A stretch of 47,021 nucleotides of DNA from Bdellovibrionota bacterium. Lineage in GTDB: Bacteria; Bdellovibrionota_C; UBA2361; OMII01. Positions 1 through 26,927 of the stretch are shown here, in pieces. The stretch spans positions 1 through 47,021 of the forward strand of contig JBIKWQ010000019.1 in assembly GCA_044356215.1 (NCBI GenBank). Reading direction: 5' to 3'. The number at the start of each line of letters is the position of its first letter. Positions within the stretch are counted from its first letter, which is position 1. The notes under the pieces are model-generated. The model did no database searches and was not told the origin of the DNA. It was given only the letters and a program-made list of their open reading frames with translations. Both the position numbers and the translations under genes were made by a program.

Positions 1-13
1 AGAGATTATCTAA

Positions 14-196
14 GGAAGGCCGGCAAAACCTACCCGTAGCGAGAAAGTGGAGGTTGAGTTGATATTTGATTTTCGAGATGGGAAAAAACCGCAAGTGTAT
101 CCACTGCGATACATTGAGGATTTTTTCCCATCTCGAAAACTCGAAGAGCAGCTCAAGATCCGCTTTCGCAGTAGGGAGGGGTTTTGCCGGCCTTCC
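14..196. mobile_element. MITE copy 1 (183 bp, IS5-like ends, fully palindromic)
   Basis: Perfect 17-bp TIRs GGAAGGCCGGCAAAACC / GGTTTTGCCGGCCTTCC. CTAA is directly repeated on both sides (10-13, 197-200). About 96% identical to the copies at 2206 and 26567. Confidence 0.92.
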
Positions 197-241
197 CTAA
201 GGGAGCGAGCTGGCCGAACGCCACCAGCCCGCGTTATTCGC

Positions 242-679
242 CTACATCGTAGCCGAAGTGCCACGCCCAGCGTTGCGCAGAACCTCACGAGCGAACTGTT
301 CCGGAGCTCTTTCAGCTAGATCTGCTAACGAGAGGATTCCTATTACATGGTTCTTCTTATCAACGACCGGCAGTCGACGGACCTCCTTGTCGCTAAATGT
401 CTTGCAGCTCTTGGCTAGATCTTGATCCGCGGTAATTGAAAATACCGGAGAGGACATAACCTCGCTGGCGGCCACTGAAGCGGGGTTCTTACCTGCTGCT
501 ATTGCTCGGCAGCAGATATCACGATCCGTGATAACTCCCACTAGTTCCGGGTCTTCTTTTGATTTAACAACCGGGATCTCTCCACAGCTATAGTCAACCA
601 TCAATTTAGCTACCTCGCTAAGCTTAGTCGTCGGTAGGCAAGTTGTTGGGTTTTTCGTCATAATCTCTTTTACGTTCAT
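242..679 (-). CDS. CBS domain-containing protein (tandem CBS pair)
   Basis: VKEIMT..P, GEIPVV...LVGVITDRDI and VRRLPVVD...VIGILSLADL motifs; AGGAGG RBS upstream. Confidence 0.93.
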   Translation of the reverse strand: MNVKEIMTKNPTTCLPTTKLSEVAKLMVDYSCGEIPVVKSKEDPELVGVITDRDICCRAIAAGKNPASVAASEVMSSPVFSITADQDLAKSCKTFSDKEVRRLPVVDKKNHVIGILSLADLAERAPEQFAREVLRNAGRGTSATM

Positions 680-772
680 CTATTATTCCTCCTGTTTATA
701 AACAGACGGAAAGGATTCTATCCGCGGATCATTCACGCGGCAGTGAGCTCGATTATGGAGAAGACACTAAAG

Positions 773-1231
773 CTAGCTTTCCTGATCAGGGCTTGAGACG
801 ATCTCAGGGTGCCTAATGATCCCGCCTAAGTGCGCTGTGTACGCTAGGCTGGCACTTGACGCTGTCGCTACCATGAATGTGATCGCTAACAGAGCGCGCT
901 CTAGAGCTGAACCTTTTGATATCGCGATCCATGACATAAGGCTAAGAAGTCCAGCCGCTATGGTAAATCCAAGCGATAATGAGGCGCTCTCTTCATGACC
1001 CTCAATAGTGGATTCGAGAATGCCCGGCAGATGCTCAACTACCTCTTCGGCGCCCTCGCCTAAAAAGTAGGCGCAAACAGCCATTAAGCTGGCGGCTATT
1101 AAAATCCCTAGCGCCACACGCGCTACCGCTAGTGAAGAGCGAAGGTGCGCGATAGCGAGCAGAATGACGCTCACAGGTGTGAGAACTACCGGTATGTGGA
1201 CTAGAGCGATATGCAGATAGGCGGCATTCAT
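773..1231 (-). CDS. DUF2231-like membrane protein
   Basis: Four hydrophobic helices; H-x3-VH-x-P N-terminal motif, GE-x-AEE, HEE, and GG-x-IRHPE C-terminus. Confidence 0.7.
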   Translation of the reverse strand: MNAAYLHIALVHIPVVLTPVSVILLAIAHLRSSLAVARVALGILIAASLMAVCAYFLGEGAEEVVEHLPGILESTIEGHEESASLSLGFTIAAGLLSLMSWIAISKGSALERALLAITFMVATASSASLAYTAHLGGIIRHPEIVSSPDQES

Positions 1232-1286
1232 AAGCTAACCCTAGCGCAGGCCGCCCAATAAGTCGATATTAACACCTTGTTGGTGA

Positions 1287-1881: not shown

Positions 1882-2205
1882 ATGAGCTTAAAAGAGAAAC
1901 CTGTCAGTGAGTGTGATAAGTGTGGCGCGTGTTGTCGCACCTATCCGATCTTGGTTTCGATCGGAGACGCTACGCGTGAGCCACGAATTAAGCTAGAGGC
2001 GCTTCAACTACCTGAGTGGCGCCGTACCGATGAGTGGGAGTACCAGCTTCATCCGCTTCCGTTCTTAGAGGGATGCCCATTCTTAAGCTCAGAAAAGACC
2101 TGCTCGGTGTATGACACGCGCCCCGACCCATGTCGGCGATTTAGTGCTGGAAGCCCTGAGTGTGATGAGGCTAGGAGTCGCGTTGGCTTGCCGAAGCTTG
2201 ATTAA
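1882..2205 (+). CDS. YkgJ family cysteine-cluster (CxxCxxCC) protein
   Basis: CDKCGACC, CPFL...CSVYDTRPDPCRRF motifs. The TAA stop lies within the left target duplication of MITE copy 2. Confidence 0.9.
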   Translation: MSLKEKPVSECDKCGACCRTYPILVSIGDATREPRIKLEALQLPEWRRTDEWEYQLHPLPFLEGCPFLSSEKTCSVYDTRPDPCRRFSAGSPECDEARSRVGLPKLD

Positions 2206-2387
2206 GGAAGGCCGGCAAAACCTACCCGTAGCGAGAAAGTGGAGGTTGAGTTGATATTCGATTTTCGAGATGGGAAAAAACCGCAAGTGTATCCCCTGTG
2301 ATACATTGAGGATTTTTTTCCATCTCGAAAATCGAAGAGCGACTCAAGATCCGCTTTCGCAGTCGGGAGGGGTTTTGCCGGCCTTCC
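2206..2387. mobile_element. MITE copy 2 (182 bp), same orientation as copy 1
   Basis: Same 17-bp TIRs; TTAA duplicated at 2202-2205 and 2388-2391; 1-bp deletion relative to copies 1 and 3. Confidence 0.92.
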
Positions 2388-3541
2388 TTAACTACCGGAG
2401 TAAAGTTCCCTTCACCATGAGCTTTTTTGCGAAGCTCCTCTAGGTGTAGCTTAATCTCGTCGGGAATCTCGGTTCCTGCTGTGCCTGTATAATCATCGAC
2501 AATCTGTCCTCGATAAACGGCATAGGCTTGTTTCGCGGTCTTTGTTCCCGGGAACTCGCTGATACACCTTTCAAGATACATCTCCGCCCAGCTCTCAGAG
2601 AAAAAGAGCGGAAGCTTGGTGTAGGCGAAGCCAAGTAAGTATAGAGCTCGCGCGCGATCGGTTTTGTTTAACTTGCCATCTTCTAACTCTTTGTGCAGAA
2701 GAGCTGTTCCTCTTAAAAGAGCTACATCATTTTGGTTGGTGTCAGGAGACTCGCTAAGCCCTATTTTTATAAGCCTCTCGGCCTCAGCTAACCTATTTTG
2801 CGCGACTGCGCGCTTATCCTTAGACCACGCGTTTAATTCGCTGGCCCACGCCTTAGCTGCTCGAGCGTCATCCTCTGGAAGCTTAGCTGAATCAGCGATG
2901 GAGCCTAGAATCTTGGCTCCTTCGGCAGGATCACGGCTAATCCTGGTAGTGATCATCAAGATGCTGCGGAGAGCCTCATCGTAATACAGCCTATATTCAG
3001 GGTCTTTAAGAACCTGCAGGAACTCACTCTCTGCCGCGGCAAACTGTCTGGTGGCGAGAAGAAAACGGGCTTTATTAAGAGGATCTAAAGATTCGTCAAT
3101 AACGCCGGGATTTGAATAGCGGCTATCTACTTTGTAAGTAGCGTGACAGGTAAAGCAGTCAGATGGGAGTTTTCTTAGGCGCCACCAGGCATAAGACTTT
3201 TTACCCTCTGAGAAGCGCCTGCTGGCATCATCTAAGAGCTCAGCTACGGACTTTGTATTCTCATCAAAACCAGGGAGGTTGTGGTACCTGGTTGGCAGGG
3301 TCTCAATCTTATGAAAGCTTTTACGGAGCCCCTGAATAATCTCGAAGATATCCTCAGAGTTTCCTTCATCTAGAAAGAGCTCTTCGGACGCGATGTAGGG
3401 TTGAATCGCCTTAAAAGGAGTGAGCAGCGAATTCATTTGGCCACGCACCTCCTGGGCTAGCACTGCGGGGGAGTGGGCTAATGCTATGAAGGTTACTAAG
3501 TGGAAATTTATCTTGGCTCTTAAGGTGATAAATGGTTTCAT
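2222..3541 (-). CDS. Exported monoheme c-type cytochrome / TPR-like helical protein with a MITE-derived C-terminal tail
   Basis: Signal-peptide-like N-terminus (..AVLA|QE), a single CFTCH heme motif after a helical domain, and TPR-like repeats (ARALYLLGFAY). The last 55 aa (KEGRQNPS...SRYG) are encoded by MITE copy 2. Confidence 0.75.
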   Translation of the reverse strand: MKPFITLRAKINFHLVTFIALAHSPAVLAQEVRGQMNSLLTPFKAIQPYIASEELFLDEGNSEDIFEIIQGLRKSFHKIETLPTRYHNLPGFDENTKSVAELLDDASRRFSEGKKSYAWWRLRKLPSDCFTCHATYKVDSRYSNPGVIDESLDPLNKARFLLATRQFAAAESEFLQVLKDPEYRLYYDEALRSILMITTRISRDPAEGAKILGSIADSAKLPEDDARAAKAWASELNAWSKDKRAVAQNRLAEAERLIKIGLSESPDTNQNDVALLRGTALLHKELEDGKLNKTDRARALYLLGFAYTKLPLFFSESWAEMYLERCISEFPGTKTAKQAYAVYRGQIVDDYTGTAGTEIPDEIKLHLEELRKKAHGEGNFTPVVKEGRQNPSRLRKRILSRSSIFEMEKNPQCITGDTLAVFSHLENRISTQPPLSRYG

Positions 3542-4369: not shown

Positions 4370-4876
4370 GTGATTCCTATGCCCGAACTATCGATTGAAG
4401 CTGTATTAACTTTAGCCGAAGAGGCTCATTCCTCTGGCAAAAGGTGGCACTTCCATATCTTATCTCCTTCTTGCTGCTTTAACCAAAGAAGCGATCGCTA
4501 TGGCCTTATGGTTGAAGTGCCATCTGATAAGACCAGCGTGATAGCGTATGTCTCAGAGCGGCCAGTAGAGCAGGGGAGGATGCTCGTTACTCTTCTTCAT
4601 GGCTCCAAGGTTCTTGATGGCACAGGTTCCGTGTCAGCAACTAAGAACGATGTAGCCGCGAAGATAGTCGCGAGAGCCCAGGAGCTGAATGAGCGATGCG
4701 TCGCTTGGCATCATCATATGTTGTTCCCTGATTGCGCGCTAAATCCTCATCCAGGGAAATGGACGTTGAGCTTCGAAGACCCTGAGTCGGGCGACGTTCT
4801 GAGCGCGACATATGAAAACGAGCCGATCGATGATCTCAAGGAAGTTGAGGCTTTGTTCTATGGGCAGATTAAGTAA
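4370..4876 (+). CDS. Hypothetical protein with a two-fold internal repeat and His/Cys motifs
   Basis: WHFHILSPSCCFN and WHHHMLFPDCALN in two aligned ~70-aa halves. Start is GTG 4370 or ATG 4379. Confidence 0.8.
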   Translation: MIPMPELSIEAVLTLAEEAHSSGKRWHFHILSPSCCFNQRSDRYGLMVEVPSDKTSVIAYVSERPVEQGRMLVTLLHGSKVLDGTGSVSATKNDVAAKIVARAQELNERCVAWHHHMLFPDCALNPHPGKWTLSFEDPESGDVLSATYENEPIDDLKEVEALFYGQIK

Positions 4877-4934
4877 GATGTAAGGATGTTAGAGAGGTGA
4901 GAGATCCCAGGGCGCGATATTCTCTAGCAGCTGG

Positions 4935-5157
4935 CTAATTTTTAGGAATCTCGACCTCTACCCGGCGATTTTTTTGTCTTCCCTCGGGATCGTCATTGCC
5001 ATTTGGTTGGGAATTGGGGGCGATAGGGTATCGCTCACCTCTACCTATCGCCTCTAAGCTAAAGTTTTTTAATTCATCTCTAGATATCAGCCAGGCCTTT
5101 ACAGATTCCGCGCGTTTTTTAGAGAGTGCATCGTTGTATGAATCTGAACCCCCAAGC
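4935..5157 (-). pseudogene. OmpA/Pal-like peptidoglycan-binding domain, C-terminal fragment
   Basis: GSDSYNDALSKKRAESVKAWL...GRGE..PIAPN...GRQKNRRVEV. The upstream GHTD motif and N-terminus are missing, replaced by the repeat element at 5158. Confidence 0.8.
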
Positions 5158-5254
5158 GGAGGCGGGCTAAACATCGCAGTTGCAGACCCTAAACGGCGCG
5201 ATTAGCGCCGTTACCGAGCAAAAACTCGCGTAAGCGGGGTTTTGCCTCGCCTCC
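5158..5254. repeat. Degenerate short MITE/REP-like palindromic element (family 2)
   Basis: Imperfect TIRs GGAGGCGGGCTAAAC / GTTTTGCCTCGCCTCC followed by CTAG; internal hairpin AACGGCGC-GATTA-GCGCCGTT; partial homolog at 36619-36655. Confidence 0.6.
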
Positions 5255-5607
5255 CTAGATAATAATCCTGGATTTAGCTAGGTTCTGCCAGGCATGACCT
5301 CACATCTTTTATACGTCACATCCCACTCCACCTCTTTTCTCTCGCCGCTCTCTTTGTAGAAAAAGGATTCGCCGAGGTTTTCATTTAAACAAAGAGGCCA
5401 GCGAGAGCGGAGAGAAGGGGCATACTGACGGTGCAGCTTATGCATTCCCCTCGCAGCTCTCTATTGTGAAAAAGCTGCTCAGTATTAGAGAATTTCCAAT
5501 TCTTTACAAAGCGTAAAAGAGATCGTCGAGCCAGAAAAGGATTTGTACCTACTTGTTGGCCTGATGCCCCTCTGTCGAAGACCCATCACCCAGGATTTGG
5601 GTAATAG

Positions 5608-6738: not shown

Positions 6739-6739
6739 C

Positions 6740-8081: not shown

Positions 8082-9293
8082 TTGGCTATTTTCCGCCCAA
8101 TGTACGTGACTAGCACAGAAGAGATCCAAACGACCGGAAGGGTTGAATTTAAGGCGATAAACGCGGGATTAACTTCCCGAATATCTGATTTTTCGCGGGC
8201 CATGTCTGGGGTTTTGTCGGAACAGTGGCAGGAATTAAATAGACGAGTAGCTGACTCTAAGCCGTTTGATACCCCTGAATGGTATCAGGCTTTCTCGTCA
8301 TCGTTCGCTGATGAGCGAGAGGCTCGCATCCTCACAGTAAGTCGCGGCGGCTCTCTGGTTGGTGTTTTGCCACTTCAAAGGGCGAATTCATTTTTTGGTC
8401 GGGTGCCGGCTAGAACCATCAGGAGTCTCTCAGGGATTCATTCCTGTCGGTTCGACTTGATAAGTGATGAATCTGACGATCGCGACGAGATAGCCCAGGT
8501 GGTCTGGAGTGAGCTTGAAAGGGATCATAGCTGGCAGGTGATTGAGGCTCTCGATGTCCCAGAGAACGGGAATTTTTTTAAGATAGTAAAAAAGGCGAGA
8601 GCAGGAGGGTTTCTTGTAGGTGAGTGGCCTACAAGATTTAGTCCAGTGTTGCGGCTCCCTGATAAAGGAACTGATCCGTTTTCCAACTGTCCACGTGGCT
8701 TTCGCGCTTTTCGTAAGAAGCTGCAGGCTAAGCTGGATGCGCTAAGCTCGCAGGGAGAGATCTCTTTTCGCGTCGATACGATGCCTTATGAGGATGGATT
8801 AGCTAAATTTATGCGACTCGAGTCCTCGGGATGGAAGGGGGCGAATGGTAGCGCAATTGTGTCTAATCTCAAGGCCGCCAAATTTTACTCATACTTTGTT
8901 GAGCACCTTCAGAGAAAGGGGGTTCTTCGCGTGTATTCACTTAATCTATCTGATAAGCCGATCGCTATGCAGCTCGGGCTATTTATGAACGGGGTGTATT
9001 ATTCACCAAAGGTGGCCTATGACGAGAGCTTTTCCAAGTTTGCTCCAGGACATCTATTAGTTAGATATCTAATAGGTGACTTAGTCGAAAACAACGCGCG
9101 GATGTTTGAGTTTCTGGGACCCCGGGCGTTCTGGAAGACTATATGGACCAAGGACGTTGTGCGGCACAGTAACCTGTACATTTTTCGGCCGAGTTTAAAG
9201 GGCCGGACGCTGCATGGTTTAACTATGGGTTTAGGCCCGAGACTAAGATCGTTAAAGCATAGGTGGTTTGGTGATCCGCAGAGCATCGCTTAG
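8082..9293 (+). CDS. GNAT family acetyltransferase (CelD/BcsL-like)
   Basis: LVGVLPL, LESSGWKG, AYDESFSKFAPGHLL and FEFLG...WK..WT motifs. Start uncertain (8082, 8100 or 8202). Confidence 0.85.
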   Translation: MAIFRPMYVTSTEEIQTTGRVEFKAINAGLTSRISDFSRAMSGVLSEQWQELNRRVADSKPFDTPEWYQAFSSSFADEREARILTVSRGGSLVGVLPLQRANSFFGRVPARTIRSLSGIHSCRFDLISDESDDRDEIAQVVWSELERDHSWQVIEALDVPENGNFFKIVKKARAGGFLVGEWPTRFSPVLRLPDKGTDPFSNCPRGFRAFRKKLQAKLDALSSQGEISFRVDTMPYEDGLAKFMRLESSGWKGANGSAIVSNLKAAKFYSYFVEHLQRKGVLRVYSLNLSDKPIAMQLGLFMNGVYYSPKVAYDESFSKFAPGHLLVRYLIGDLVENNARMFEFLGPRAFWKTIWTKDVVRHSNLYIFRPSLKGRTLHGLTMGLGPRLRSLKHRWFGDPQSIA

Positions 9294-15638: not shown

Positions 15639-16028
15639 CCGAGGTCGGCGGACAAAGATGTCGGATTGCAGTGTGGAGACCTCTCCCCAACGTATTGTTT
15701 GGTTTGTCAAGCAATCGGAATACTCGGTTTAAACATAACGACGTTTGTCGCTGATGAGATATTCCATTATTTCTAATTCTGATCTACAAGTTAGCCCGTA
15801 GCTCAGACTCTGTTTCGGTTTTTCTGACGGAGTAGCTGTCAGGAGCCATGGAAAAGCTTCGGTGCGTAAAGTGCCTCTTTCTTTGGCAGGTGACTGGGTC
15901 TGTGAGCTGACTATAACTGGTAGTAGTGGGTGGTTACCAACTTGCTTAGCGGGTTTAGAGCGGCCAAAGTGGTTCGGCTGATTAAATTCGTTATTAGTTT
16001 AGACCTTCCCAACTTTTCTTCTCTATCC

Positions 16029-16706
16029 ATGATCAAAAAATCAAGATTGTTTTTGTTAGGCGCTTGCGTTCTGGCCCTTGGGATCTTCGTTTTAGACTCG
16101 CGAGGGTTGCTAGATAGTCGAGAGGCTGTAGCTCAAGCCGCGCCAGGCGCGAGCTATCCGGCGGTCGGAGTGCGGGCAGGTGTGTACAACGACGGACAAG
16201 CCGCATTGTGGGATCTGAACATCACCGATCACTTCCACTATTTTGGCCCAGAGCAGAGAGCCCGCGGATACAAGCCAACTCAGCCGATTAACTTTAGCCA
16301 CGTAATCCACGTTCAGCAGAACAAGATGGAGTGCCAATACTGCCACTGGTCAGTGGGCAAGGCTTCCTACGCGGCGATTCCAGAGGAAGAGACCTGCATG
16401 GGGTGTCACGGCGCTTTGGTGGCCGGAAAAAGCGAGCAGGGGAAAAAGGATATCGAGAAGCTAAAGGATTACTACAATCGCGGCGAGCCGATTCCGTGGG
16501 TGAAGGTGCATGTAATGCCTGACCACGTAAAGTTTAATCACAAGCGTCACGTGAAAGCTGGAGTTTCATGTCAGGAGTGCCACGGCCAGATTCCAGAGAT
16601 GGAGAAGGTCGAGCGCGTATCTTCGATGAAGATGGGCTGGTGTATTAGCTGCCATCGTGAGAAGGGCGCTAGCATCGATTGCTTAACCTGTCACGGTCAC
16701 CGTTAA
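16029..16706 (+). CDS. actA: Alternative Complex III pentaheme cytochrome c subunit
   Basis: Five CxxCH motifs (CQYCH, CMGCH, CQECH, CISCH, CLTCH), QPINFSH..H and PIPWVKVH.MPDHV.FNH; N-terminal hydrophobic helix. ATG 16029 preferred. Confidence 0.92.
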   Translation: MIKKSRLFLLGACVLALGIFVLDSRGLLDSREAVAQAAPGASYPAVGVRAGVYNDGQAALWDLNITDHFHYFGPEQRARGYKPTQPINFSHVIHVQQNKMECQYCHWSVGKASYAAIPEEETCMGCHGALVAGKSEQGKKDIEKLKDYYNRGEPIPWVKVHVMPDHVKFNHKRHVKAGVSCQECHGQIPEMEKVERVSSMKMGWCISCHREKGASIDCLTCHGHR

Positions 16707-16750
16707 TCCCGATTTAGTTTAGATTTTCAGTCGTTTTATTGAGGACAAAG

Positions 16751-19700
16751 ATGGAAGGCGACATTGTTCAGTTGAACGCGAGCCAGAAGAAATCAAAAGG
16801 CTCCGAGGCTCAGGAAGGTCACGGCTCTCTGGTAAATATATCGAGACGCAGGTTCCTGCAGGTTCTAGGAGCGACATCCGCAGTTGGGGCGGCCGCGTGC
16901 GCTAATCCAGCTGAGCAGAAGATAGTGCCTTACGTGAAGCCTGACCCAGAGCAGATACCGGGAGTATCGGTTTGGTACAGCTCGACATGTACAGAGTGCT
17001 CTGTAGGCTGCGGAATCCGAGTACGTGCTCGTGAGGGGCGCGCTGTAAAGATAGAAGGTAACCCAAACAGCCCGGTCAACCGTGGTAGCTTGTGTGGATT
17101 AGGACAATCAGCGCTCCAGTCGCTTTACGATCCGGACCGTGTTCGTGAGCCTCAGAAGAGGAAGAGTCGTGGACTAGAGCAGGATAAGCTCACAGCTCCG
17201 ACATCAAATACATTCGCGGCTGTATCTTGGGACGACGCTTACGCGAAGGTTCAGGACGCGGTATCAAAAGCTACTAACAAGAAGGTTTTGTTGACCGGTG
17301 AGTTGACAACTGCGCAGTCTGAGCTTGTTGAGAATTTCGTGTCTCAGTTGGGCTTTACCCACGTTATCTGGGACCCAACGCAGCCTGTGGCGGTAGCTAA
17401 GGCATCTGAGATGGTTTACGGGACTTTTGGTGTTCCGACTTATTCGATCGATAAGGCTCAAGTAGTTTTAAATTTCGGCGCTGACTTTTTAGAGACCTGG
17501 GGTAATCCAGTTGGCTACGCGCGTCAGTGGGCTGATTCGCGTCGCTCTGAGTCTCCTCTTCGGTTTATTCATGTAGAGCCGAGGCTTTCGTTGACTGGAG
17601 CTAACGCTGATCTCTGGCTGAAATCAGCCGTAGGCTCTGAAGCGCGTATTGCGCTCTTCCTGATAGGCGAGCTTCTAAAGGCAGGGCGCTCGAAGGGCTT
17701 GTCAGAGGACGCTAAATCAAAGCTTCAGAAGCTAACAGAGGGGATCACTGTTCAAGCTATTTCACAAGAGACAGGAGTTGCCGCTGAGAAGCTTGTGATG
17801 GTGGCGCATTATTTAGCTGAATCTGAAAGCTCGCTAGTTTTAGCGGGTGGAGCAGCTACACAAACCAGCGATCCTTTGCCGCTCTTAGTTGCCGCCAACA
17901 TCCTCAATCTCATGTTGGGTAATGTCGGCAAGACTGTAGATGTAGCGGCTATGAAGAAGCCTCAATCTTCAGCAAAGGCTGTATCTGAGCTAATAGCGGA
18001 TATGGAAGCTGGCAAGGTTGATGTGTTGATGACTTACAACACCAATCCGCAATTTACCTTCCCGTCGGCTTATGGATTTGGCTATGCCGCGAACAAGGTT
18101 GGCATCAAGGGTGAAGGAACGGGTAAGAAGGCAGGTCTAGTGGTAGCTCTAACAAGCCACCTCGATGAAACCGCTGAGCTAGCTGATTTCGTTTTACCAG
18201 TGCACACAAGTCTGGAGGATTGGGGTTACGTTAAGCTTGTTGATGGTTCTGTTAGTTTGATGCAGCCATCGATGCGACCAATTTTTAGTACCAAGAGCTT
18301 TGGAGACGTTTTAATAGAGATCGCTTCAAGCGCATCAAAGAGTATAGCTGGCGAAAGCAAGAGCTTTGACGCTTTTGTTAAGGCTGGATATCTCAAAGAG
18401 TGCGGAAATAAAGCAGGCGGCGATGTTGAGAAATTCTGGATGGCTAGCCTTGAGAAGGGAGGTCTATTCGAGTCTCAATCTCCGGCTAAGACAGGGGGAG
18501 CTGCTAGTGTAAATCCAGCTGTTTACTCGATGTCCTTTGGAGTTACAGTTCGCCCAGGAAGTGGGGATTCATTAGCGCTTTATCCTTATCCATCAGTTAA
18601 GTCTTTTGATGGACGTGCGGCAAATAGGCCGTGGCTACAGGAGCTAGCTGATCCGATCACTCAGGCAGTTTGGGGCGCGTGGGCTGAGATCCACCCAGAT
18701 ACAGCTAAGGCCTTAAATATAGCTCAGGGTGACGCGGTTGTTCTGCGTACAGATAACGGCGAGGTTCGCGCACCCGCTTATGTAACAGAGCACGTTCACC
18801 GTGGAGTGGTTGCTGTTCCAGTTGGTCAGGGTCACTCAAGCTATGGCCGATTCGCCAAGAGCGCCGCAGATGGGAGCGGTAGCGTTTACAGCCTGCTAGA
18901 CAAAGCTTTGGCGAAGGATGTGGATGCGCTAGTCATGACCGGCGCGACTGTTAAGGTTTCGCGTGGCCTAGGTAAGGGCAACTTAGTTACTGTTCAGGAT
19001 TTCGCCTCGCAGGAGAATCGTGAATTGGCGAGGACTACCATGTTGGTGGCCGGAACAGCGGGAGCCGCGGCGCACGCCCACGGGGAAGATCACGGGGAGG
19101 CGCACGGTACAGCGCATGGCGGAGGCCATGGAGAGTCGCACGGCGGAGAGCACGGCGGTCATCACGAGCCAAAGCAGATGTACGAGCAACGCGAGCATCC
19201 ATTGTATCAGTGGGGCTTGGCAGTTGATCTCGCGGCGTGCACAGGTTGCTCGGCGTGTGTGGTCGCTTGCTCGGCTGAGAATAACATTCCAGTAGTCGGC
19301 AAGAAGGTTGTCTCACAGGGACGTGAGATGGCTTGGATCCGCATCGAGCGCTACTACGATTCAGTAAAGACAGAGAACGGCGGAGAGGAGCTCAAAGTAA
19401 GCTTCCTGCCTATGATGTGTCAGCACTGTCAGAACGCTCCTTGCGAGCCGGTTTGCCCAGTGTACGCGACCTATCACAACGAAGAGGGTATGAACGCGAT
19501 GATCTACAATCGTTGCGTAGGTACTCGTTACTGCTCGAACAACTGTTCTTACAAGGTTAGACGCTTTAACTGGTTCCAGTACGAGTGGCCAGAGCTACTT
19601 GATTGGCAGTTGAATCCAGATGTGACCAAGCGAACAGTAGGCATCATGGAGAAGTGCTCGTTCTGTGTGCAGAGGATCGCCGAGGCTAAGGATATCGCGA

Positions 19701-19912
19701 AGGATCTCGGTAGGCTCGTTGAGGATGGAGATATCACGCCGGCGTGTGTGCAGACCTGTCCAACTCAGGCATTAACTTTCGGAAACCTAAAGGATCCGAA
19801 CAGCAGAGTAAGCAAAGCAGCTAAGAGTGAGCGCGCGTATAAGGTGCTAGATCACCACTTAAATACGCAGCCATCAGTGAGCTACTTAAACGATATCCGA
19901 TACAAGGCTTAA
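16751..19912 (+). CDS. actB: ACIII ActB (molybdopterin-oxidoreductase-like domain + Fe-S domain), Tat lipoprotein
   Basis: SRRRFLQ Tat motif with AAAC lipobox; PWLQELADPIT; CTGCSACVVAC, CQHC..APCEPVCP, YNRCVGTRYCSNNC and MEKCSFC...PACVQTCP. Confidence 0.95.
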   Translation: MEGDIVQLNASQKKSKGSEAQEGHGSLVNISRRRFLQVLGATSAVGAAACANPAEQKIVPYVKPDPEQIPGVSVWYSSTCTECSVGCGIRVRAREGRAVKIEGNPNSPVNRGSLCGLGQSALQSLYDPDRVREPQKRKSRGLEQDKLTAPTSNTFAAVSWDDAYAKVQDAVSKATNKKVLLTGELTTAQSELVENFVSQLGFTHVIWDPTQPVAVAKASEMVYGTFGVPTYSIDKAQVVLNFGADFLETWGNPVGYARQWADSRRSESPLRFIHVEPRLSLTGANADLWLKSAVGSEARIALFLIGELLKAGRSKGLSEDAKSKLQKLTEGITVQAISQETGVAAEKLVMVAHYLAESESSLVLAGGAATQTSDPLPLLVAANILNLMLGNVGKTVDVAAMKKPQSSAKAVSELIADMEAGKVDVLMTYNTNPQFTFPSAYGFGYAANKVGIKGEGTGKKAGLVVALTSHLDETAELADFVLPVHTSLEDWGYVKLVDGSVSLMQPSMRPIFSTKSFGDVLIEIASSASKSIAGESKSFDAFVKAGYLKECGNKAGGDVEKFWMASLEKGGLFESQSPAKTGGAASVNPAVYSMSFGVTVRPGSGDSLALYPYPSVKSFDGRAANRPWLQELADPITQAVWGAWAEIHPDTAKALNIAQGDAVVLRTDNGEVRAPAYVTEHVHRGVVAVPVGQGHSSYGRFAKSAADGSGSVYSLLDKALAKDVDALVMTGATVKVSRGLGKGNLVTVQDFASQENRELARTTMLVAGTAGAAAHAHGEDHGEAHGTAHGGGHGESHGGEHGGHHEPKQMYEQREHPLYQWGLAVDLAACTGCSACVVACSAENNIPVVGKKVVSQGREMAWIRIERYYDSVKTENGGEELKVSFLPMMCQHCQNAPCEPVCPVYATYHNEEGMNAMIYNRCVGTRYCSNNCSYKVRRFNWFQYEWPELLDWQLNPDVTKRTVGIMEKCSFCVQRIAEAKDIAKDLGRLVEDGDITPACVQTCPTQALTFGNLKDPNSRVSKAAKSERAYKVLDHHLNTQPSVSYLNDIRYKA

Positions 19913-19931
19913 GCGACGAGAGACGGAAATC

Positions 19932-21320
19932 ATGGAAAGCAATCATAACACAAACAGGTCGGACGCGGAGGCACCAGTTACCTACGCTGAGGTAAATGAC
20001 ACGGTCTTGAAGATGTTGGAGCCGCCAGGAACTGGATGGTTTCTTCTTCTTTTTACCTGCCTCTTTTTCCTGGCTATCGGAGCTTCGTGCTGGTTTTACC
20101 AGATGTGGAGCGGTTTCGGAGAGTCAGGTAAGAGCCACCCGATCGGATGGGGTACATACATCACCAACTTCGTATTCTGGGTAGGTATCGCGCACTCAGG
20201 AACTCTGATATCCGCGGTTTTGTACCTCTTCAGAGCGGCGTTTAGACAGCCGATCTATCGGTTAGCTGAGGCGATGACTGTTTTCGCGGTTATGACCGCT
20301 GGATTATTCCCGATCATACACTTGGGTCGTCCTTGGTACGCATTGTGGCTGATGCCGTATCCAAACCAGCGTGCTCTGTGGCCGCAGTTTAGGTCTCCGC
20401 TCCTTTGGGACGTGTTCGCGGTTTCTACTTACTTTACGATATCGGCTACCTTCTTCTTTGTCGGCCTCATTCCTGATATCGCAGCGGCTCGCGATAGAGC
20501 GACGACTAAGTTCCGTAAGGCTCTTTACGGAGTTACTTGCTTAGGCTGGCGTGGAAGCCACACTCAGTGGAAACACTACCAGGCGGCATATCTGATTTTC
20601 GCAGCTTTCGCGACTCCACTCGTAGTATCAGTGCACTCGGTGGTTTCTTGGGACTTCGCGATGAGTATCGTTCCAGGTTGGCACGCGACGATCTTCCCGC
20701 CGTACTTCGTAGCGGGAGCGATCTTCTCCGGTGTCGCGATGGTTATCACCTTGGCGATTCCGCTTCGTAAGGCGTTTGGCCTTGAGAGGTTAATCACCTC
20801 TTTCCACTTTGACGCGATGAGCAAGCTAATTCTCTTGACGTCGGGTGTGGTATCTTACTCATACATTACCGAGTTCTACACCGCTTGGTTCAGCAACAAC
20901 CCGTTTGAGAGGTACCAATTCTGGTTCCGACCATTCGGTGAGTTTTGGATGGCGTTTTGGGGCATGACTTTCTGTAACTGTATATTCCCGCAGCTACTTT
21001 GGGTTAAGTCTCTGCGAACGAATATTCCTTTCCTGTTCGTACTTTCGATCTTCATCAATATCGGAATGTGGTTAGAGCGTTTCAACATCATCTTCCAGTC
21101 CCTTACTCGTGAGTTCATCCCAGCGGCTTGGGGTGGTTACAACTTCTCATGGGTTGAGGTGGGAATTACAGTTGGAGCCTTTGGTTGGTTCGGAATGTGG
21201 ATGACGCTTTTCATTAAGTTCTTCCCGTCAGTAGCTATCACTGAGATTAAGGAGATCCTCCCACCTCCGATGAGAAGGGGAGATCACGGACACGGCGTAG
21301 CCGCGGGAGCGGGACATTAG
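19932..21320 (+). CDS. actC: ACIII ActC (NrfD/PsrC family quinol-binding membrane subunit)
   Basis: ITNFVFWVGIAHSGTLISA, HLGRPW, FRSPLLWDVFAVSTY and SVHSVVSWDFA. Confidence 0.96.
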   Translation: MESNHNTNRSDAEAPVTYAEVNDTVLKMLEPPGTGWFLLLFTCLFFLAIGASCWFYQMWSGFGESGKSHPIGWGTYITNFVFWVGIAHSGTLISAVLYLFRAAFRQPIYRLAEAMTVFAVMTAGLFPIIHLGRPWYALWLMPYPNQRALWPQFRSPLLWDVFAVSTYFTISATFFFVGLIPDIAAARDRATTKFRKALYGVTCLGWRGSHTQWKHYQAAYLIFAAFATPLVVSVHSVVSWDFAMSIVPGWHATIFPPYFVAGAIFSGVAMVITLAIPLRKAFGLERLITSFHFDAMSKLILLTSGVVSYSYITEFYTAWFSNNPFERYQFWFRPFGEFWMAFWGMTFCNCIFPQLLWVKSLRTNIPFLFVLSIFINIGMWLERFNIIFQSLTREFIPAAWGGYNFSWVEVGITVGAFGWFGMWMTLFIKFFPSVAITEIKEILPPPMRRGDHGHGVAAGAGH

Positions 21321-21344
21321 GATTAGGAAGTAGGGAGCTTTGCT

Positions 21345-21863
21345 ATGGTAGAGTCATCAAGTCGAGCGGTAGTAGGGGTGTTCACCTATATGGATGACGC
21401 TCTCGAGGCGGTTAAGAAGGTTAAATCCGCTAACATGGATTACCGAATGTACTCCCCAGTACCTCGCCATGAGATCGAGGAGGTTACATACCCAGAGAAG
21501 AGTCCAGTGAGAACTGTGGCGTTGATATGCGCGATCACGGGATGTATTGCTGGATTCGCGTTGGCGATCCTCTGTTCCCTTGATTGGCCGATGCGCACCA
21601 GCGCTAAGAATGTGGTTTCGATCCCGGCGTTTTTTGTCCCTGGATATGAGTGGACGATCCTGTTTGGTGGTTTAGGAACCCTGATGTCGATCCTGGTTTT
21701 CTGCAGGTTGCCCTCGGTGTGTCGCGCCGCCGGCTATGACCCGCGATTCTCAAACGACAAGTTTGGTGTTGTGGTCGCTTGCGCTGGAAATCAGGTCGAC
21801 GACGTAAAGCGTCGCATGCTCGATTCCGGAGCTGATGAGGTCGATGTTAGGGATAGTTTGTAA
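21345..21863 (+). CDS. actD: ACIII ActD (DUF3341)
   Basis: YSPVP.H, two TM helices, DWP, PAF...YEWTILF and YDPRFSNDKF. Confidence 0.93.
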   Translation: MVESSSRAVVGVFTYMDDALEAVKKVKSANMDYRMYSPVPRHEIEEVTYPEKSPVRTVALICAITGCIAGFALAILCSLDWPMRTSAKNVVSIPAFFVPGYEWTILFGGLGTLMSILVFCRLPSVCRAAGYDPRFSNDKFGVVVACAGNQVDDVKRRMLDSGADEVDVRDSL

Positions 21864-21880
21864 ATTAGTGAGAGGAGCAG

Positions 21881-22396
21881 ATGAGCGCAGCTCGATGTGT
21901 TAAAGGTTTCGCTGTAGTGGCCTCGTGCTTCCTAGCTTTTTTGGCTAGGGATGTTAGAGCGCTTCCCTTCAACGACGATATGGTGAACGTGCAAAAGCGC
22001 ACGGGTGTGATGATGCGCCCGAAAGCCCCGGGAACGGTTGCTATCGGAATGTCGCAATATCACGTTAAGTCACGAGAAGAGGCTGAAGCCCTTTCTAATC
22101 CGATCAAGGGCGATGCTCTTTCAACTGCGAACGGTAAGAGGTTGTTCGCCGTGAATTGCTTGCCTTGTCATGGCGATATCAGCAAGAAGCCATACGAGCC
22201 TGGTTCTGTCGGTAAGAAGGCTCTTCAGACCCCACCTGATCTGACCACAGATATGTATAAGGGCAGAACAGACGGTAGTATTTACGCGACGATTCACTTC
22301 GGTATTCGTTTAATGCCAGGACATGGGTGGAAGCTATCGCCGACTGAGCATTGGGATATCGTCAATTACGTTCGTAGTCAGCAAGGTGTTAATTAG
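21881..22396 (+). CDS. actE: ACIII ActE monoheme cytochrome c
   Basis: GKRLFAVNCLPCHG, DG.IY.TI..G...MP and W.IVNYVRS.Q; operon position. Confidence 0.9.
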   Translation: MSAARCVKGFAVVASCFLAFLARDVRALPFNDDMVNVQKRTGVMMRPKAPGTVAIGMSQYHVKSREEAEALSNPIKGDALSTANGKRLFAVNCLPCHGDISKKPYEPGSVGKKALQTPPDLTTDMYKGRTDGSIYATIHFGIRLMPGHGWKLSPTEHWDIVNYVRSQQGVN

Positions 22397-22411
22397 TTAG
22401 AGGTATAAAAG

Positions 22412-23692
22412 ATGTCGCACGTACACATGGTTCCAGTGAACATCGAGAAGGTGGTAAACGCCGGTCCGATCACAACAGAATCCTCAACCTACACGAAATT
22501 GTGGTGCATGGTGTTTGTTGGTGTTTTCGTATTCGCGTACGGGTTGCTAGCTGGAGATGCCGGCCATACATGGGGAGCGTTTTACGTTAACGCGGTGTAT
22601 TTTCAGGGGTTAGCCTTGGGTGGCGTGATGACTACGGTCATTATGCAGATCGTTAGAGGTACGTGGGGAGCGCCAGTGCGTCGCTTGGCTGAGGCGAACG
22701 TCGCTTATCTGCCAGTCGCGTTCGTTGTTTTTCTAACAACTTACTTTGGTCGTGAGTACATATTCTACTGGGGTAGGAATCCTATGCCAGGACGTGAGTG
22801 GTGGATGACTCCCGGTTTTGTATACGCGCGATTCGCGATACTTTTCTTCGTTCTTTATCTTCTAATGGCGCGTTTTGTTGGTATGTCACTTCGTGGTGAT
22901 GTTGGTCTTGCTAAAGATAGGGCTACTAATAAGTCGACGTGGAGCTTGCCTATTCACAGGTACTTGCTCAGGGGATGGAAGGGGGCTGAGCGAGAGGTAA
23001 TCCCTCTGCAACGCAAGATGTCGGTCAATGGTCCAGTTGTTGTATTAGCTTATGCGGTGACCATTTCCCTGTTCTCGTTTGAGATGATTATGGGACAGAA
23101 CCCAACTTGGTTCTCAAACCTTTTTGGCGCCTTCATATTCGTTAGCCAGATCTATATCGGTTGGGCAGGATTAGCTTTGATGAGTATGTTCTTCTCAAAG
23201 AGGAATAAGGGCCTCGGAGAGTTGATTACATCGCAACAGTTCTGGGATCTCGGTAAGCTTAACTTCGGCTTCTGCATGTTGTGGGGATACATGTTCTGGT
23301 CGCAGTTCCTGACGCAGTGGTACGGAAACCTTCCTGAGGAGACTCAATGGTTAATCCTCCGCACACGTGAGTTTCCTTGGAAGGGACTAGCGTGGATCGT
23401 GTTTCCTATGTGCTTTATTATCCCGTTTATCTCGTTACTGAGTAGGGATGTGAAGAAGAACCCGGTGACCTACGCGATAGTTTGCTTGGTTCTTATGACA
23501 GGAGTTTGGCTGGATAGATATCTGATCATTATGCCGGAGATCAGCCCAAGCCATATCCCGTTAGGGCTAACTGAGGTTGGAATATTCATTGGGTTCCTCG
23601 GTGCTTACCTGATTTGCATCAGGAGCTTTCTAAGTAAATTTCCTTATGTGACTGTGTCGCATCCGCTCACTCATGGCAGTGCCGAGTGGTAA
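22412..23692 (+). CDS. actF: ACIII ActF membrane subunit
   Basis: About 10 TM helices; W..PVRRLAEA, WFSNLFG, DLGKL.FGF and WSQFLTQWYGNLPEET.W. Confidence 0.93.
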   Translation: MSHVHMVPVNIEKVVNAGPITTESSTYTKLWCMVFVGVFVFAYGLLAGDAGHTWGAFYVNAVYFQGLALGGVMTTVIMQIVRGTWGAPVRRLAEANVAYLPVAFVVFLTTYFGREYIFYWGRNPMPGREWWMTPGFVYARFAILFFVLYLLMARFVGMSLRGDVGLAKDRATNKSTWSLPIHRYLLRGWKGAEREVIPLQRKMSVNGPVVVLAYAVTISLFSFEMIMGQNPTWFSNLFGAFIFVSQIYIGWAGLALMSMFFSKRNKGLGELITSQQFWDLGKLNFGFCMLWGYMFWSQFLTQWYGNLPEETQWLILRTREFPWKGLAWIVFPMCFIIPFISLLSRDVKKNPVTYAIVCLVLMTGVWLDRYLIIMPEISPSHIPLGLTEVGIFIGFLGAYLICIRSFLSKFPYVTVSHPLTHGSAEW

Positions 23693-24057: not shown

Positions 24058-25230
24058 GTGACCCAACAATCAAATTCACAACCTTCGGCGGGACTACCAA
24101 TCGCGGTCGACGCGATGGGGGGTGACCACGGTCCTAAAGTTGTTGTCGAGGGCGCGATAGCCGCGGCACGGGACTTTGGGATAGCCGCTGTACTTGTCGG
24201 CGACGAGAACCAGATTAATCCGCTGCTAAGCTCGTGCGATCCGAGCAGAGAGCTCCCTATAACAGTTCAGCACGCCTCACAGGTAGTCGGAATGGATGAG
24301 GCTCCTGGATTAGCTATTAGAGGCAAGCAAGATTCATCCATCAGAGTAGCTTTTGATCTAGTTTCTAAAGGTAAGGCAAATGCAGTTGTAAGCCCTGGAA
24401 ACACTGGGGCCATTATGGCCGCCGGTGTGTTCGTTGTCGGTACGCTGCCCGGTATCGCTAGACCCGCGATAGCTTCACTTATTCCTAAAGGTGTCTCTGG
24501 TACTCCTACTGTTCTCTTAGATGCTGGCGCGAACACTGGGTGCCAGGCTTTTCAGTTAGTGCAGTTCGCTCTAATGGGACATTACTACGCAGAGGCAGCG
24601 CTAGGTTGCTCCGCACCGCGTATCGCGTTGCTTTCTAACGGCACTGAGCTCGCCAAGGGGAACGATATCATTCGTTCCGCGGCGATGATGTTGTCTGAGT
24701 TAGAGGGGATTAACTTCATTGGCTATGTCGAGGGGCGAGATATCGCGCGAGATGTAGTCGATGTTGTTGTTTGTGACGGATTCGTCGGCAATATCGTTCT
24801 TAAAGCGATGGAAGGTTGCGTTGGTCTGGTGACTGACTCTATCAAATCGGTAGCGCAGACAAGTTTGCGGGGAAAGATCGGTCTTTGGCTAGCTCGACCG
24901 GTTCTTAGGTCGGTTTTTCGAGAGAAGCTGGATCCTTCTGCTTATGGAGGAGCGCCTCTTCTCGGCCTTGGACAGGTGGCGATTAAGTGTCACGGATCCT
25001 CATCAAGTCGGGCAGTCATGAACGGTATTCGCGTCGCTAAAAGATTCGTTGATCAGGGAGTGCTTAGTAGCTTAAACGTCGCTCTCCAGCAGCTAGACGC
25101 GCGCATCGCGGGGGTTGATTCTGAGGGTGGAAACGGTTGGTCGAGAGCTTTTGATAGGAAAGCTAGTGGGATGAAAGATCAAGATAAGAGTTCAAAGGGT
25201 TCGGTAGGAGGAGAAAATGGCAGAGAGTAA
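24058..25230 (+). CDS. plsX: Phosphate acyltransferase
   Basis: IAVDAMGGD, SPGNTGA, LLDAGAN, VCDGFVGNI.LK and YGGAPLLG...HGSS. Confidence 0.97.
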   Translation: MTQQSNSQPSAGLPIAVDAMGGDHGPKVVVEGAIAAARDFGIAAVLVGDENQINPLLSSCDPSRELPITVQHASQVVGMDEAPGLAIRGKQDSSIRVAFDLVSKGKANAVVSPGNTGAIMAAGVFVVGTLPGIARPAIASLIPKGVSGTPTVLLDAGANTGCQAFQLVQFALMGHYYAEAALGCSAPRIALLSNGTELAKGNDIIRSAAMMLSELEGINFIGYVEGRDIARDVVDVVVCDGFVGNIVLKAMEGCVGLVTDSIKSVAQTSLRGKIGLWLARPVLRSVFREKLDPSAYGGAPLLGLGQVAIKCHGSSSSRAVMNGIRVAKRFVDQGVLSSLNVALQQLDARIAGVDSEGGNGWSRAFDRKASGMKDQDKSSKGSVGGENGRE

Positions 25231-25963
25231 GAAGAGGGTAGCGCTAGTAACAGGAGCTTCACGTGGTATCGGACGCTCGATCGCTGTAGCATTAGCTAAG
25301 CAGGGCTGTTTTGTAATCATCAATTACTCCTCATCTCCTGAGGCGGCTCAAGAGACTCTAAACGAGGTCAGAGAGGTCGGAGGAGACGGCGAGGTTCTTA
25401 AGTTCGCGGTGCAGGATAGTGAGGCCGTAGAGAGCGCCTTTGATGGGATTAAGTCTCGTCATGGTCAGTTAGATATCCTAGTTAATAACGCTGGAATCTC
25501 GCGCGATGGTTTGGTCCTGAGAATGAAGGACGAGGAGTGGTTAGCGACGATGGGCGTAAACCTAAACGGGGCTTTCTTCTGTTCACGTGCCGCGGCGCGA
25601 CTCATGCTAAAATCTAAGTGGGGCAGGATAGTAAATATCTCCTCAGTGGTCGGAGAGATGGGTAATGCGGGCCAGGTTCCTTATGTATCTTCTAAGGCTG
25701 GTATGATCGGTTTAACAAAGGCTTTAGCCAAGGAGCTAGCATCACGCAATGTAACAGTGAACGCGATAGCGCCTGGATTTATCGAGACAGATATGACAGC
25801 GGCTCTGGATGATAAGGTCAGGGGAGAGCACATGAAAGCGATTCCCCTAGGTCGTTACGGCCAAGCTAATGAGGTAGCGGAGCTAGTCGCGTTCCTAACG
25901 TCTGATAACGCCGCCTATATTACCGGTCAGGTAATCGGGATTAATGGTGGGATGTATATGTAG
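25217..25963 (+). CDS. fabG: 3-oxoacyl-ACP reductase
   Basis: TGASRGIG, NNAGI.RD, YxxSK and VNAIAPGFI.TDMT. Confidence 0.96.
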   Translation: MAESKKRVALVTGASRGIGRSIAVALAKQGCFVIINYSSSPEAAQETLNEVREVGGDGEVLKFAVQDSEAVESAFDGIKSRHGQLDILVNNAGISRDGLVLRMKDEEWLATMGVNLNGAFFCSRAAARLMLKSKWGRIVNISSVVGEMGNAGQVPYVSSKAGMIGLTKALAKELASRNVTVNAIAPGFIETDMTAALDDKVRGEHMKAIPLGRYGQANEVAELVAFLTSDNAAYITGQVIGINGGMYM

Positions 25964-26012
25964 GGGGGGGCCTCAATAGGCCTTATATTTTTTCTCCTAA
26001 TCCTTCTCCTCA

Positions 26013-26350
26013 TCCTGCACCTGCACGGTCAATCCCTAAATAGAGTTTACATCAAATAAGCTATTTTTAGGTAAGGGGGACGCGGAGCGATGAATAGCTG
26101 TTACAGGGGAATAGCGATAACCATGCCTCGGGCAAGCCCACACTAAGCGGCGCGGGAGCGCCGCGCTCCGAAAGATGCTACTTTAATCCTAGCCTCTGTG
26201 ATCCTCTGTGGTTTCCTCTTCCCTTGAGCCTGTAGAACTATCTTAGAATAAATTCTACATCGAGGTCGCGGAGGGCCACGGAGATTCAACTTTGCTTATT
26301 TCACTTATTTCTAGGTAGAGGAAGAGGAGGAGATAGGTGCAGGTGCAGGA
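26013..26350. repeat. Nested inverted repeats in the fabG-acpP spacer
   Basis: Perfect 14-bp IR TCCTGCACCTGCAC (26013-26026) / GTGCAGGTGCAGGA (26337-26350) encloses a long G-U-rich hairpin at 26194-26283. Confidence 0.7.
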
Positions 26351-26566
26351 GGAAGAGTAGTAGATAGCAAGAGAAGGAAGATTGACCGAATGCCCTTCCC
26401 AGCTAACCACCTGACATAAAAGCGCTTATTATTGAGTCTTTAACCACCATTTTCAGGTACATCCTAAATTTATACCCGCTAGGTCTTGACTATTACCCTC
26501 CTGTCTAATTAAATCAGGGGATTGACGTTCGAGGTATTTAGGCTGTTTGGGTCTAGTTAGACTTAA

Positions 26567-26749
26567 GGAAGGCCGGCAAAATCCCTCCCTATTGCGAAAG
26601 CGGATCTTGAGTCGCTTTTCGAGTTTTCGAGATGGGAAAAAATCCTCAATGTATCACAGTGGATACACTTGCGGTTTTTCCCCATCTCGAAAATCGAATA
26701 TCAACTCAACCTCCACTTTCTCGCTACGGGTAGGTTTTGCCGGCCTTCC
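26567..26749. mobile_element. MITE copy 3 (183 bp), inverted relative to copies 1 and 2
   Basis: Same TIRs with one mismatch; TTAA duplicated at 26563-26566 and 26750-26753; 8 substitutions versus copy 1, all transitions. Confidence 0.92.
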
Positions 26750-26927
26750 TTAACAAGCATTTTGGACTGATGTTCAATCCAAAATGCCTGTCCGCTAAGC
26801 GAGTTTGGTCATAGACCTAACGGTAGTGAGGCGCGATCGCGATAATTTGAAATAGACGCGCCAATAGCTTAAGCTCGACTCGTTAAACTTATTGTAAAAA
26901 TAGAAACGTTTAGGAGACGTGTTTTTC

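Follow-up and report, generated by a model that had tools for sequence, protein, structure and literature searches.

MITEs with this type of end and target have already been described, and the closest described element to the one analysed here is MITEPsy1 of Pseudomonas syringae pv. phaseolicola. According to the excerpted text of PMC3189936, MITEPsy1 is flanked by a duplication of CTAG or YTAA, is attributed to the IS5-family element ISPsy2 and was caught transposing, i.e. it was shown to move. Here, we describe three copies of a MITE in a 47,021-nucleotide stretch of DNA from a Bdellovibrionota bacterium (contig JBIKWQ010000019.1, hereafter the window). The family is apparently undescribed and may stand unnamed in the RefSeq MITE survey PMC11602168. 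As described in the same excerpt, MITEPsy1 shares with it the absence of genes, the GGAAGG end and the insertion into the 3' ends of genes, and its left end is identical to the end of the window element at 13/17 positions, a score matched at a single further plus-strand position of the window. MITEPsy1 differs in its length of 100 nt and its imperfect 18-nt ends, compared to 182-183 nt, 17-nt ends that are near-perfect and a hairpin that spans the whole element here (the ends, not the interiors, are compared), and it has a known candidate partner in ISPsy2, whereas no partner was found for the window MITE in the regions searched.

The IS5 group, whose target is given as YTAR in the consulted section of PMC5009759, resembles the family in its ends of about 16 bp starting with GGA and in its 4-bp YTAR duplication, but its members are 1.2 kb long and carry a transposase gene. 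Identity to the window MITE end amounts to 10-11/17 for IS5, 10/17 for the IS5-group element of Ralstonia phage RSY1 and 8/17 for ISBmu23, all of which are flanked by CTAA or TTAG. A first-pass annotation of this DNA had called the ends IS5-like, and this agrees with the GGAAGG start of E. coli IS5 and with the GGA- ends and CTAA/TTAG duplications of these three natural elements. The BrickBuilt/MITEPgRS elements of Porphyromonas gingivalis, as far as the excerpt of PMC4596501 goes, likewise comprise several MITEs with common IS5-family ends and unrelated interiors with trapped repeats, but they have GAGAC ends, direct-minisatellite cargo and inconsistent duplications. QMITE2 of Coxiella and the palindromic elements of Rickettsia are described in the available parts of PMC5896051 and PMC10969869 as hairpins of 150-190 bp that lengthen C-termini or enter genes in frame, similar to two cases reported below; QMITE2 is distinguished by direct repeats of 7-9 bp, and the Rickettsia elements by being very often in frame. 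Finally, REPINs, in the portion of PMC3116915 at hand, are non-autonomous long hairpins with nested and adjacent insertions, but they consist of REP units and are associated with RAYTs, in contrast to the site-tracking 4-bp duplication and the lack of a RAYT in the searched ORFs here.

Table 1 Copies of the MITE, their target duplications and the neighbouring host genes in the window.
Feature	Position	Strand	Remarks
Target duplication left of copy 1	10..13	+	CTAA
MITE copy 1	14..196	+	183 bp; TIRs 14-30 and 180-196; long imperfect hairpin
Target duplication right of copy 1	197..200	+	CTAA; convergent CBS gene stops 41 bp away
Host CBS-domain gene	242..679	-	end 41 bp from copy 1
Host CxxCxxCC (PF03692) gene	1882..2205	+	TAA stop within the TTAA target of copy 2
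Target duplication left of copy 2	2202..2205	+	TTAA
MITE copy 2	2206..2387	+	182 bp; where two convergent genes overlap by 35 bp
Host gene of unknown function	2222..3541	-	439 aa; reads into copy 2
Target duplication right of copy 2	2388..2391	+	TTAA
Degenerate relic, same end family	5159..5258	-	good end 5238-5254 with CTAG flank; decayed partner near 5159
Target duplication left of copy 3	26563..26566	+	TTAA
MITE copy 3, inverted	26567..26749	-	183 bp; intergenic
Target duplication right of copy 3	26750..26753	+	TTAA

The three dispersed copies of this 47-kb window show 175/183 identity (95.6%) in every pairwise alignment, a similarity far above chance (blastn E 1e-81), and their six-frame translations consist of short peptides only. 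The 17-mer GGAAGGCCGGCAAAACC is exact at five of the six ends, with one mismatch at the left end of copy 3. The positions, identity of about 96% and 17-bp TIRs reported in the first-pass annotation are thus confirmed, and its length of 183 bp holds for all but copy 2. Its description of the family as fully palindromic has to be corrected, since each copy is an imperfect hairpin that matches its reverse complement at 78-79% of positions (144/184 to 148/187) and has distinct left and right sub-terminal arms. It had also missed a fourth, degenerate end, which belongs to the relic in Table 1. The relic abuts a truncated OmpA-family gene fragment.

Copy 2 lies at the ends of two host genes. The CxxCxxCC gene is intact because its TAA stop forms part of the TTAA target, and the convergent gene carries 55 element-encoded residues in place of its last 10 native ones. 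In-silico excision of copy 2 together with one TTAA (186 bp, 62 codons) gave a protein of 394 aa, which is 95% identical to the uninterrupted homologue P0001 (394 aa), ends at the same residue and shares 7/10 of the last residues. Neither the element tail nor a length above 419 aa occurs among the 118 full-length homologues listed. This comparison of predicted proteins supports the mobility of copy 2 by an empty allele at the protein level. The empty-site check gave no counterpart at the DNA level: no listed locus overlaps the window, and in the orthologous pairs L014/L051 and L033/L050 both genomes are occupied. Copy 3 is located about 600 bp past fabG and 174 bp ahead of acpP. Of 21 distinct proteins that carry element peptides, P0121, with an in-frame element insert of 62 aa, is the sole internal in-frame case, and all six frames through copy 2 and its flanks contain a stop, which does not fit an element of the Rickettsia palindromic type.

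Relatives were sought with the element, as the first-pass annotation had proposed, and the GTDB scan returned at least 51 loci, 46 of these in nine MAGs, eight of which are labelled Bdellovibrionota. Five loci outside the lineage (L028, L032, L039, L045 and L046) are single ends at ordinary genes and were taken as chance; neither they nor L019, which overlaps L018, entered the counts of flanks and stop codons. Additional sites in the relatives listed amount to 0-4.5 per 100 kb of flank, and related copies are frequently found at MAG contig ends. YTAR stands on both sides of 21 out of 29 paired elements (window and loci listed), and the two flanks are identical in 18 of these 21, compared to 7.8 by permutation (0/100,000); without the window copies, the figures are 15/18 and 8.6 (P 0.0007). 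The 11 paired elements without identical direct repeat comprise three with differing YTARs and eight with a non-YTAR flank. At ends beyond the selection imposed by the scan pattern, YTAR was found at 32/38 against a background of 0.83%. That the 4-bp repeats are true target duplications, as the first-pass annotation had claimed from three window sites one base apart, which are weak proof alone, is borne out by the empty allele and by 26 further paired elements. The YTAA target claimed there fits CTAA, TTAA and TTAA in the window; the target of the family is YTAR, and CTAG is the commonest among the relatives listed.

The predicted bias to gene ends was recovered as well: targets coincide with stop codons at 14/68 ends (listed loci and window) compared to 3.4% expected, or at 14/46 versus 6.2% if coding sites are excluded, and Pfam domains are present in 11/14 ORFs closest to ends. 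An early form of this test, restricted to the 18 identical-repeat elements and to ORFs of at least 150 aa, gave 2/18 versus 3.3%; the later tests used all ends. Nested and back-to-back insertions were seen, with four pairs sharing one tetranucleotide. The same ends enclose at least three unrelated palindromic cores as well as deletion forms among the loci listed, and one orthologous site harbours different cores in two genomes. One palindromic core is of the same kind as the arms on either side of multicopy four-helix-bundle (TIGR02436/PF05635) gene cassettes.

For copy 2, the predicted folding energy is -121.7 kcal/mol for RNA (z -16.6) and -75.1 for DNA (z -16.4), with 0/200 shuffles as good in either case. 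Across nine copies, 97% of cells are paired, and both sides are changed in 15/75 pairs. The same strand folds better in 9/9 full-length type-A copies (consensus -114.8 vs -93.6). The predicted folds show the ends paired to one another, and neither forms a local hairpin, which does not fit a REP unit at each end. An excess of G-U wobbles (20 vs 6), when counted on that strand's own structure, was rejected as a sign of RNA selection, as the unbiased mirror alignment gave 57 (G-T) vs 51 (A-C). No known ncRNA family was recognised: Rfam 15 gave 0 matches in the window at the gathering threshold and, around copy 2 at the E-value threshold, 16 sub-threshold matches only, the best being generic miRNA hairpins. 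No tRNA or tmRNA was found, nor a terminator pattern around copy 3.

As the first-pass annotation had stated, the window holds no partner transposase; its sole DDE transposase belongs to an IS4-family element, which was rejected as partner because its ends are unrelated (1-6/16 identical). No transposase bounded by element ends was detected by Pfam in the window or among the 148 out of 459 candidate ORFs that lie closest to element ends, and no Y1/RAYT gene among the 39 window ORFs or the same 148. This search is affected by contig breaks at repeats in the MAGs and covers the ORFs near the ends, a small part of each genome. InsH gave no convincing match among 1027 ORFs of the listed loci and the window (best E 0.34 or worse), and neither the IS4-family element of the window nor IS66 TnpB found a match in the listed loci. 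The whole element had no match in plasmids or phages at E<=1. Queries of 31 bases from the ends hit 5 and 13 plasmid records at E<=10, all with E 2-7, and one of them (H3) has no annotated transposase within 1.5 kb of the match. The element peptides of three frames, used as bait for a fused transposase, returned 3, 4 and 14 matches, 0 of them with a transposase domain. The proposal of the first-pass annotation, a non-autonomous element moved in trans by an IS5-subgroup transposase, stands for the non-autonomous and mobile part, and a transposase bounded by such ends was not found in the regions searched.

The element is multicopy and gene-less, has 17-bp TIRs, and is inserted into a YTAR tetranucleotide that is duplicated. 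It is probably a non-autonomous MITE mobilised in trans by a predicted IS5-group DDE transposase, a partner that we infer from the ends and the target. This enzyme, encoded elsewhere in the genome or formerly resident, would bind both ends in trans and make target cuts staggered by 4 nt, and the duplication would arise on repair by the host. Because only the ends would be needed, the interior would be free to drift, suffer deletion or acquire other small palindromes. Since TAA/TAG is part of YTAR, a copy that lands on a stop codon would spare the gene and survive, and one that lands a few codons upstream would create a new C-terminus (copy 2), a truncation or, rarely, an in-frame insert. Complementarity of the arms may be kept through template switching and/or hairpin selection. 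Several observations speak against this explanation: no transposase gene between such ends turned up in the regions searched, 11/29 paired elements have no identical direct repeat, the empty allele is known at the protein level and not from DNA, near-full-length palindromy and conserved asymmetric bulges exceed the needs of a DDE transposase, and true IS5-group ends match at only 8-11/17. The latter, together with the partner not found among the 148 nearest ORFs or in the InsH search, would fit a DDE transposase of another family with a 4-bp YTAR-like target duplication, as is known for IS701. We regard this as rather unlikely, since the ends start with GGAAG as in IS5 and match MITEPsy1 at 13/17, and the ends of the IS4-family element in the window are unrelated.

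The hairpin over the whole length with its doubly changed pairs, the nested and back-to-back insertions, which are also seen in REPINs in the consulted part of PMC3116915, and the autonomous IS not found in the regions searched could instead point to a single-stranded hairpin substrate moved by an HUH enzyme of the RAYT type present in single copy or by another enzyme kept by the host. This is quite improbable given the clean site-tracking 4-bp direct repeat, the hallmark of a staggered cut through both strands, the negative search for Y1/RAYT genes across the window and the 148 ORFs closest to element ends, ends that work with unrelated cores, and their resemblance to IS5 and MITEPsy1. It is also unlikely that the ends of 17-21 bp are a chassis for interchangeable palindromic cores in a long-lived nested hairpin system, whose fold would be needed for spread, with a host-kept enzyme instead of a free IS5 and the four-helix-bundle gene as a possible helper of the inner module. 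A host-selected structured RNA (terminator or mRNA-stability hairpin) that spread through its function at 3' ends would account for the constant better-folding strand and the stop-codon enrichment, but seems very improbable: orientation relative to the upstream gene is unbiased (left ends 5/18, right ends 6/20), mirror mismatches show no wobble bias, neither an Rfam family nor a terminator pattern around copy 3 was found, the element disrupts genes too, and the empty allele is already present in close relatives. Last, an assembly artefact or a non-mobile segmental repeat, to which the many related copies at MAG contig ends and certain discordant flanks might be ascribed, is hardly credible in view of window copies that differ at 8 positions and lie in unrelated contexts, of nine assemblies and of one exact empty allele.

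The mechanism is in all likelihood a textbook one. The element represents an apparently undescribed MITE family from an uncultured freshwater lineage. The family remodels the ends of genes, by a new C-terminus of 55 residues in the window and by truncations and one in-frame insert of 62 residues elsewhere, and it generates spurious database ORFs and breaks MAG assemblies. The exchange of cores between the same ends and the link to the four-helix-bundle cassettes could hint at the function of those genes, a point for specialists.

The first-pass annotation had reported three dispersed copies of a hairpin MITE with 4-bp direct repeats, and all three were recovered at the coordinates and with the flanks tabulated below. 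Any two copies were identical at 175 of 183 positions and the same 17-mer occupied five of the six ends. The element had also been called fully palindromic, which proved too strong: each copy matched its own reverse complement at only 78-79%, which makes the MITE a long, imperfect hairpin whose left and right arms can be told apart, rather than a perfect palindrome. The predicted fold of copy 2 reached -121.7 kcal/mol as RNA and -75.1 kcal/mol as DNA (z about -16), a stability attained by 0 of 200 shuffles. The proposed Rfam search matched no known ncRNA family, and ARAGORN, plasmid and phage searches likewise gave no match for the window copies. The end family has a fourth, decayed member in the window, which abuts an OmpA-family fragment (4935-5150) consisting of the 3' half with the 5' half missing, possibly left by an insertion and then an adjacent deletion.

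Features of the window, of loci from the GTDB scan (L) and of proteins carrying element peptides (P)
Feature	Location	Details
MITE copy 1	14-196	183 bp; flanks CTAA/CTAA
MITE copy 2	2206-2387	182 bp; flanks TTAA/TTAA
MITE copy 3	26567-26749	183 bp, inverted; flanks TTAA/TTAA
Decayed fourth member of end family	about 5159-5258	
Alternative complex III gene cluster	15930-23692	
1908-aa ORF	36661-42387	TamB fused to Omp85/POTRA domains
IS66 remnant	43652-44657	TnpA-like ORF, TnpB, start of TnpC; interrupted by IS4-family element
IS4-family element, complete	44641-45969	DUF4372 + DDE; 20-bp inverted repeats
Four-helix-bundle cassette	L027 888-1484	
Four-helix-bundle cassette	L042 12431-13033	
Four-helix-bundle cassette	L041 9084-9688	
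Four-helix-bundle cassette parts	L008, L026, L041 end	
Lytic transglycosylase	P0121	internal in-frame 62-residue insert (182+4 bp) of element origin
Tandem element units	P0119	two 62-residue units at called start
Truncated fusion	P0138	example with element peptide

A GTDB scan with one degenerate end pattern, YTAR flank included, returned at least 53 stretches (at least 51 loci), and no locus listed overlapped the window, whose host lineage is suggested by where the element occurs. Among the matches listed, at least 46 loci came from at least nine MAG assemblies (eight titled Bdellovibrionota, one Proteobacteria), five loci in other taxa had single ends only and were put down to chance, and the closest relative, L049, was identical to copy 2 at 164 of 185 positions. 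Seed flanks held another 0-4.5 sites in every 100 kb; at this density a genome would have from tens to low hundreds of copies, a figure that clustering may inflate.

Both ends were recognisable in 29 elements, three from the window and the rest from the loci listed. YTAR stood on both sides of 21, and the tetramer was identical in 18 of these, compared to 7.8 expected by permutation (18 reached in 0 of 100,000), in agreement with the claimed true target duplication; with the window excluded, the figures were 15/18 and 8.6 (P 0.0007). An identical repeat was absent from 11 of the 29. Since the pattern itself required YTAR, ends beyond its reach were counted separately, and YTAR was present at 32 of these 38 against a background of 0.83%. 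Position -5 was C at 69 of 94 ends, and four back-to-back element pairs each had one tetramer in common. The MITE is very probably a mobile non-autonomous element that duplicates YTAR.

The expected bias toward gene ends was also seen. Counting targets whose TAA/TAG terminates an open frame of at least 100 codons, with mechanical gene calls, we found 14 at 68 element ends compared to 309 at 9094 other YTAR sites (P 6e-8), or 14/46 versus 6.2% with coding sites left out (P 4e-7); either survival bias or target preference could underlie this. A narrower first test gave 2/18, and a stop at the target is shown for only one of the three window copies. Of the 14 ORFs lying closest to ends, 11 have Pfam domains. 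DNA adenine methylase genes from different MAGs (L030 9168-10004 and L047 5160-6026) stop exactly at element ends. Extension of a C-terminus by a MITE has been described for the Coxiella hairpin element QMITE2 (PMC5896051, in excerpt).

A convergent CBS gene ends 41 bp from copy 1, the left context of which is cut by the window edge, and copy 3 lies between fabG and acpP. Copy 2 sits in the overlap of two convergent genes. The PF03692 gene (1882-2205, +) is intact, with its own stop within the TTAA target, and the opposite gene (3541-2222) runs on into the element to give a 439-aa product. In-silico excision of copy 2 plus one TTAA restored a 394-aa product; taking out just the 182 bp would put the gene out of frame. 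The best homologue, P0001 (95% identical, from a cluster of 16 sequences), also has 394 aa, stops at the same residue as the restored protein and shares seven of the last ten residues with it. Judged by this comparison, P0001 is an empty allele of the copy 2 site at the protein level, and the proposed empty-site check is answered to that extent. The 2222-3541 product has 118 homologues, which form with it a conserved family (350-420 aa, CxxCH motif) for which Pfam/NCBIfam gave no match.

From its end sequence and YTAR target, a link of the MITE to IS5 is inferred, and an IS5-group transposase probably moves it. E. coli IS5 ends start GGAAGGTGCGAA and its target is YTAR (PMC5009759, in excerpt), as the first-pass annotation had held. 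Three of four natural IS5-group loci had GGA- ends, CTAA or TTAG repeats and ends identical to the window end at 8-11 of 17 positions; in the fourth, the script's criteria picked out no end pair. Like the window MITE, the Pseudomonas syringae MITEPsy1, whose left end is identical to the window end at 13 of 17 positions, makes YTAR-type duplications (CTAG or YTAA); it was trapped transposing and is attributed to ISPsy2 of the IS5 family (PMC3189936, in excerpt). The transposase had been placed outside the window. Against an IS5-group mobiliser, the searches turned up no partner: no InsH-like ORF occurred among 1027 ORFs. The ends of the window's IS4-family element, considered as mobiliser, were unrelated. 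DDE transposases follow the staggered-cut model. Neither transposase nor RAYT was found by Pfam search in the 148 ORFs nearest to ends (of 459 candidates), nor a plasmid match for a partner element.

We also considered whether the hairpin has an RNA function. In nine copies with the window-type core (type A), both partners differed in 15 of 75 consensus pairs and pairing held in 97% of cells, more than in all 500 shuffles, a comparison carrying no probability since the structure was derived from the consensus of these same, related copies. The same strand folded better in 9/9 copies, and mismatches on it were purine-rich (99 versus 17 by mirror alignment). An unbiased mirror alignment showed no wobble bias (G-T 57, A-C 51), and orientation bias to upstream genes was absent (5/18, 6/20). 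The data do not support an RNA function. Where inverted repeats are imperfect, template switching from one to the other makes their arms alike and flips the spacer, with no need for selection (PMC7202029, PMC8604942, in excerpt). This process could be the source both of the arm covariation and of the opposite element orientation at one orthologous site, L014 versus L051. Several type-A copies carry an extra small palindrome of 24 bp or longer in the terminal loop (L016 1573-1778, L051 6237-6442, L023, L004, L007).

Ends of 17-22 bp were common to type A, to a core of heptamer palindromes (type B; seven copies, 97-99% identical, in one assembly), to a third core in L050 and to short forms of 53-86 bp. 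L033 and L050 have matching ends next to the same gene (94% amino-acid identity), with unlike cores inside them, and Porphyromonas elements similarly share IS5-type ends around unrelated interiors (PMC4596501, in excerpt). The L050 core resembles, at 84-88% similarity, the arms of another palindromic element, which lies at window 26000-26362 between fabG and acpP and has 24-bp arms 310 bp apart with further small hairpins inside; the 965-bp fabG-acpP spacer resembles a stack of nested repeats. Over about 45 bp, the B core gave a 95-98% match to the arms around a four-helix-bundle gene (TIGR02436, PF05635) in 600-bp cassettes, at least three of them in one assembly. In these, heptamer palindromes surround the four-helix-bundle/23S-IVP gene, and the cassette has an outer inverted repeat of its own. 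For L027 and L042, what appear to be direct repeats of 7-8 bp were read by eye. A hybrid at L013 (about 4840-5013), which pairs a type-B end with a cassette end, suggests recombination via the shared core. No account of such a multicopy cassette was found among the best literature matches, nor a description of the present family in literature on IS5-type/YTAR or Bdellovibrionota MITEs or by end motifs; a large MITE survey has been published (PMC11602168, in excerpt). The MITE is real and recently spread and works like MITEPsy1, and core exchange and the four-helix-bundle link are leads worth keeping.
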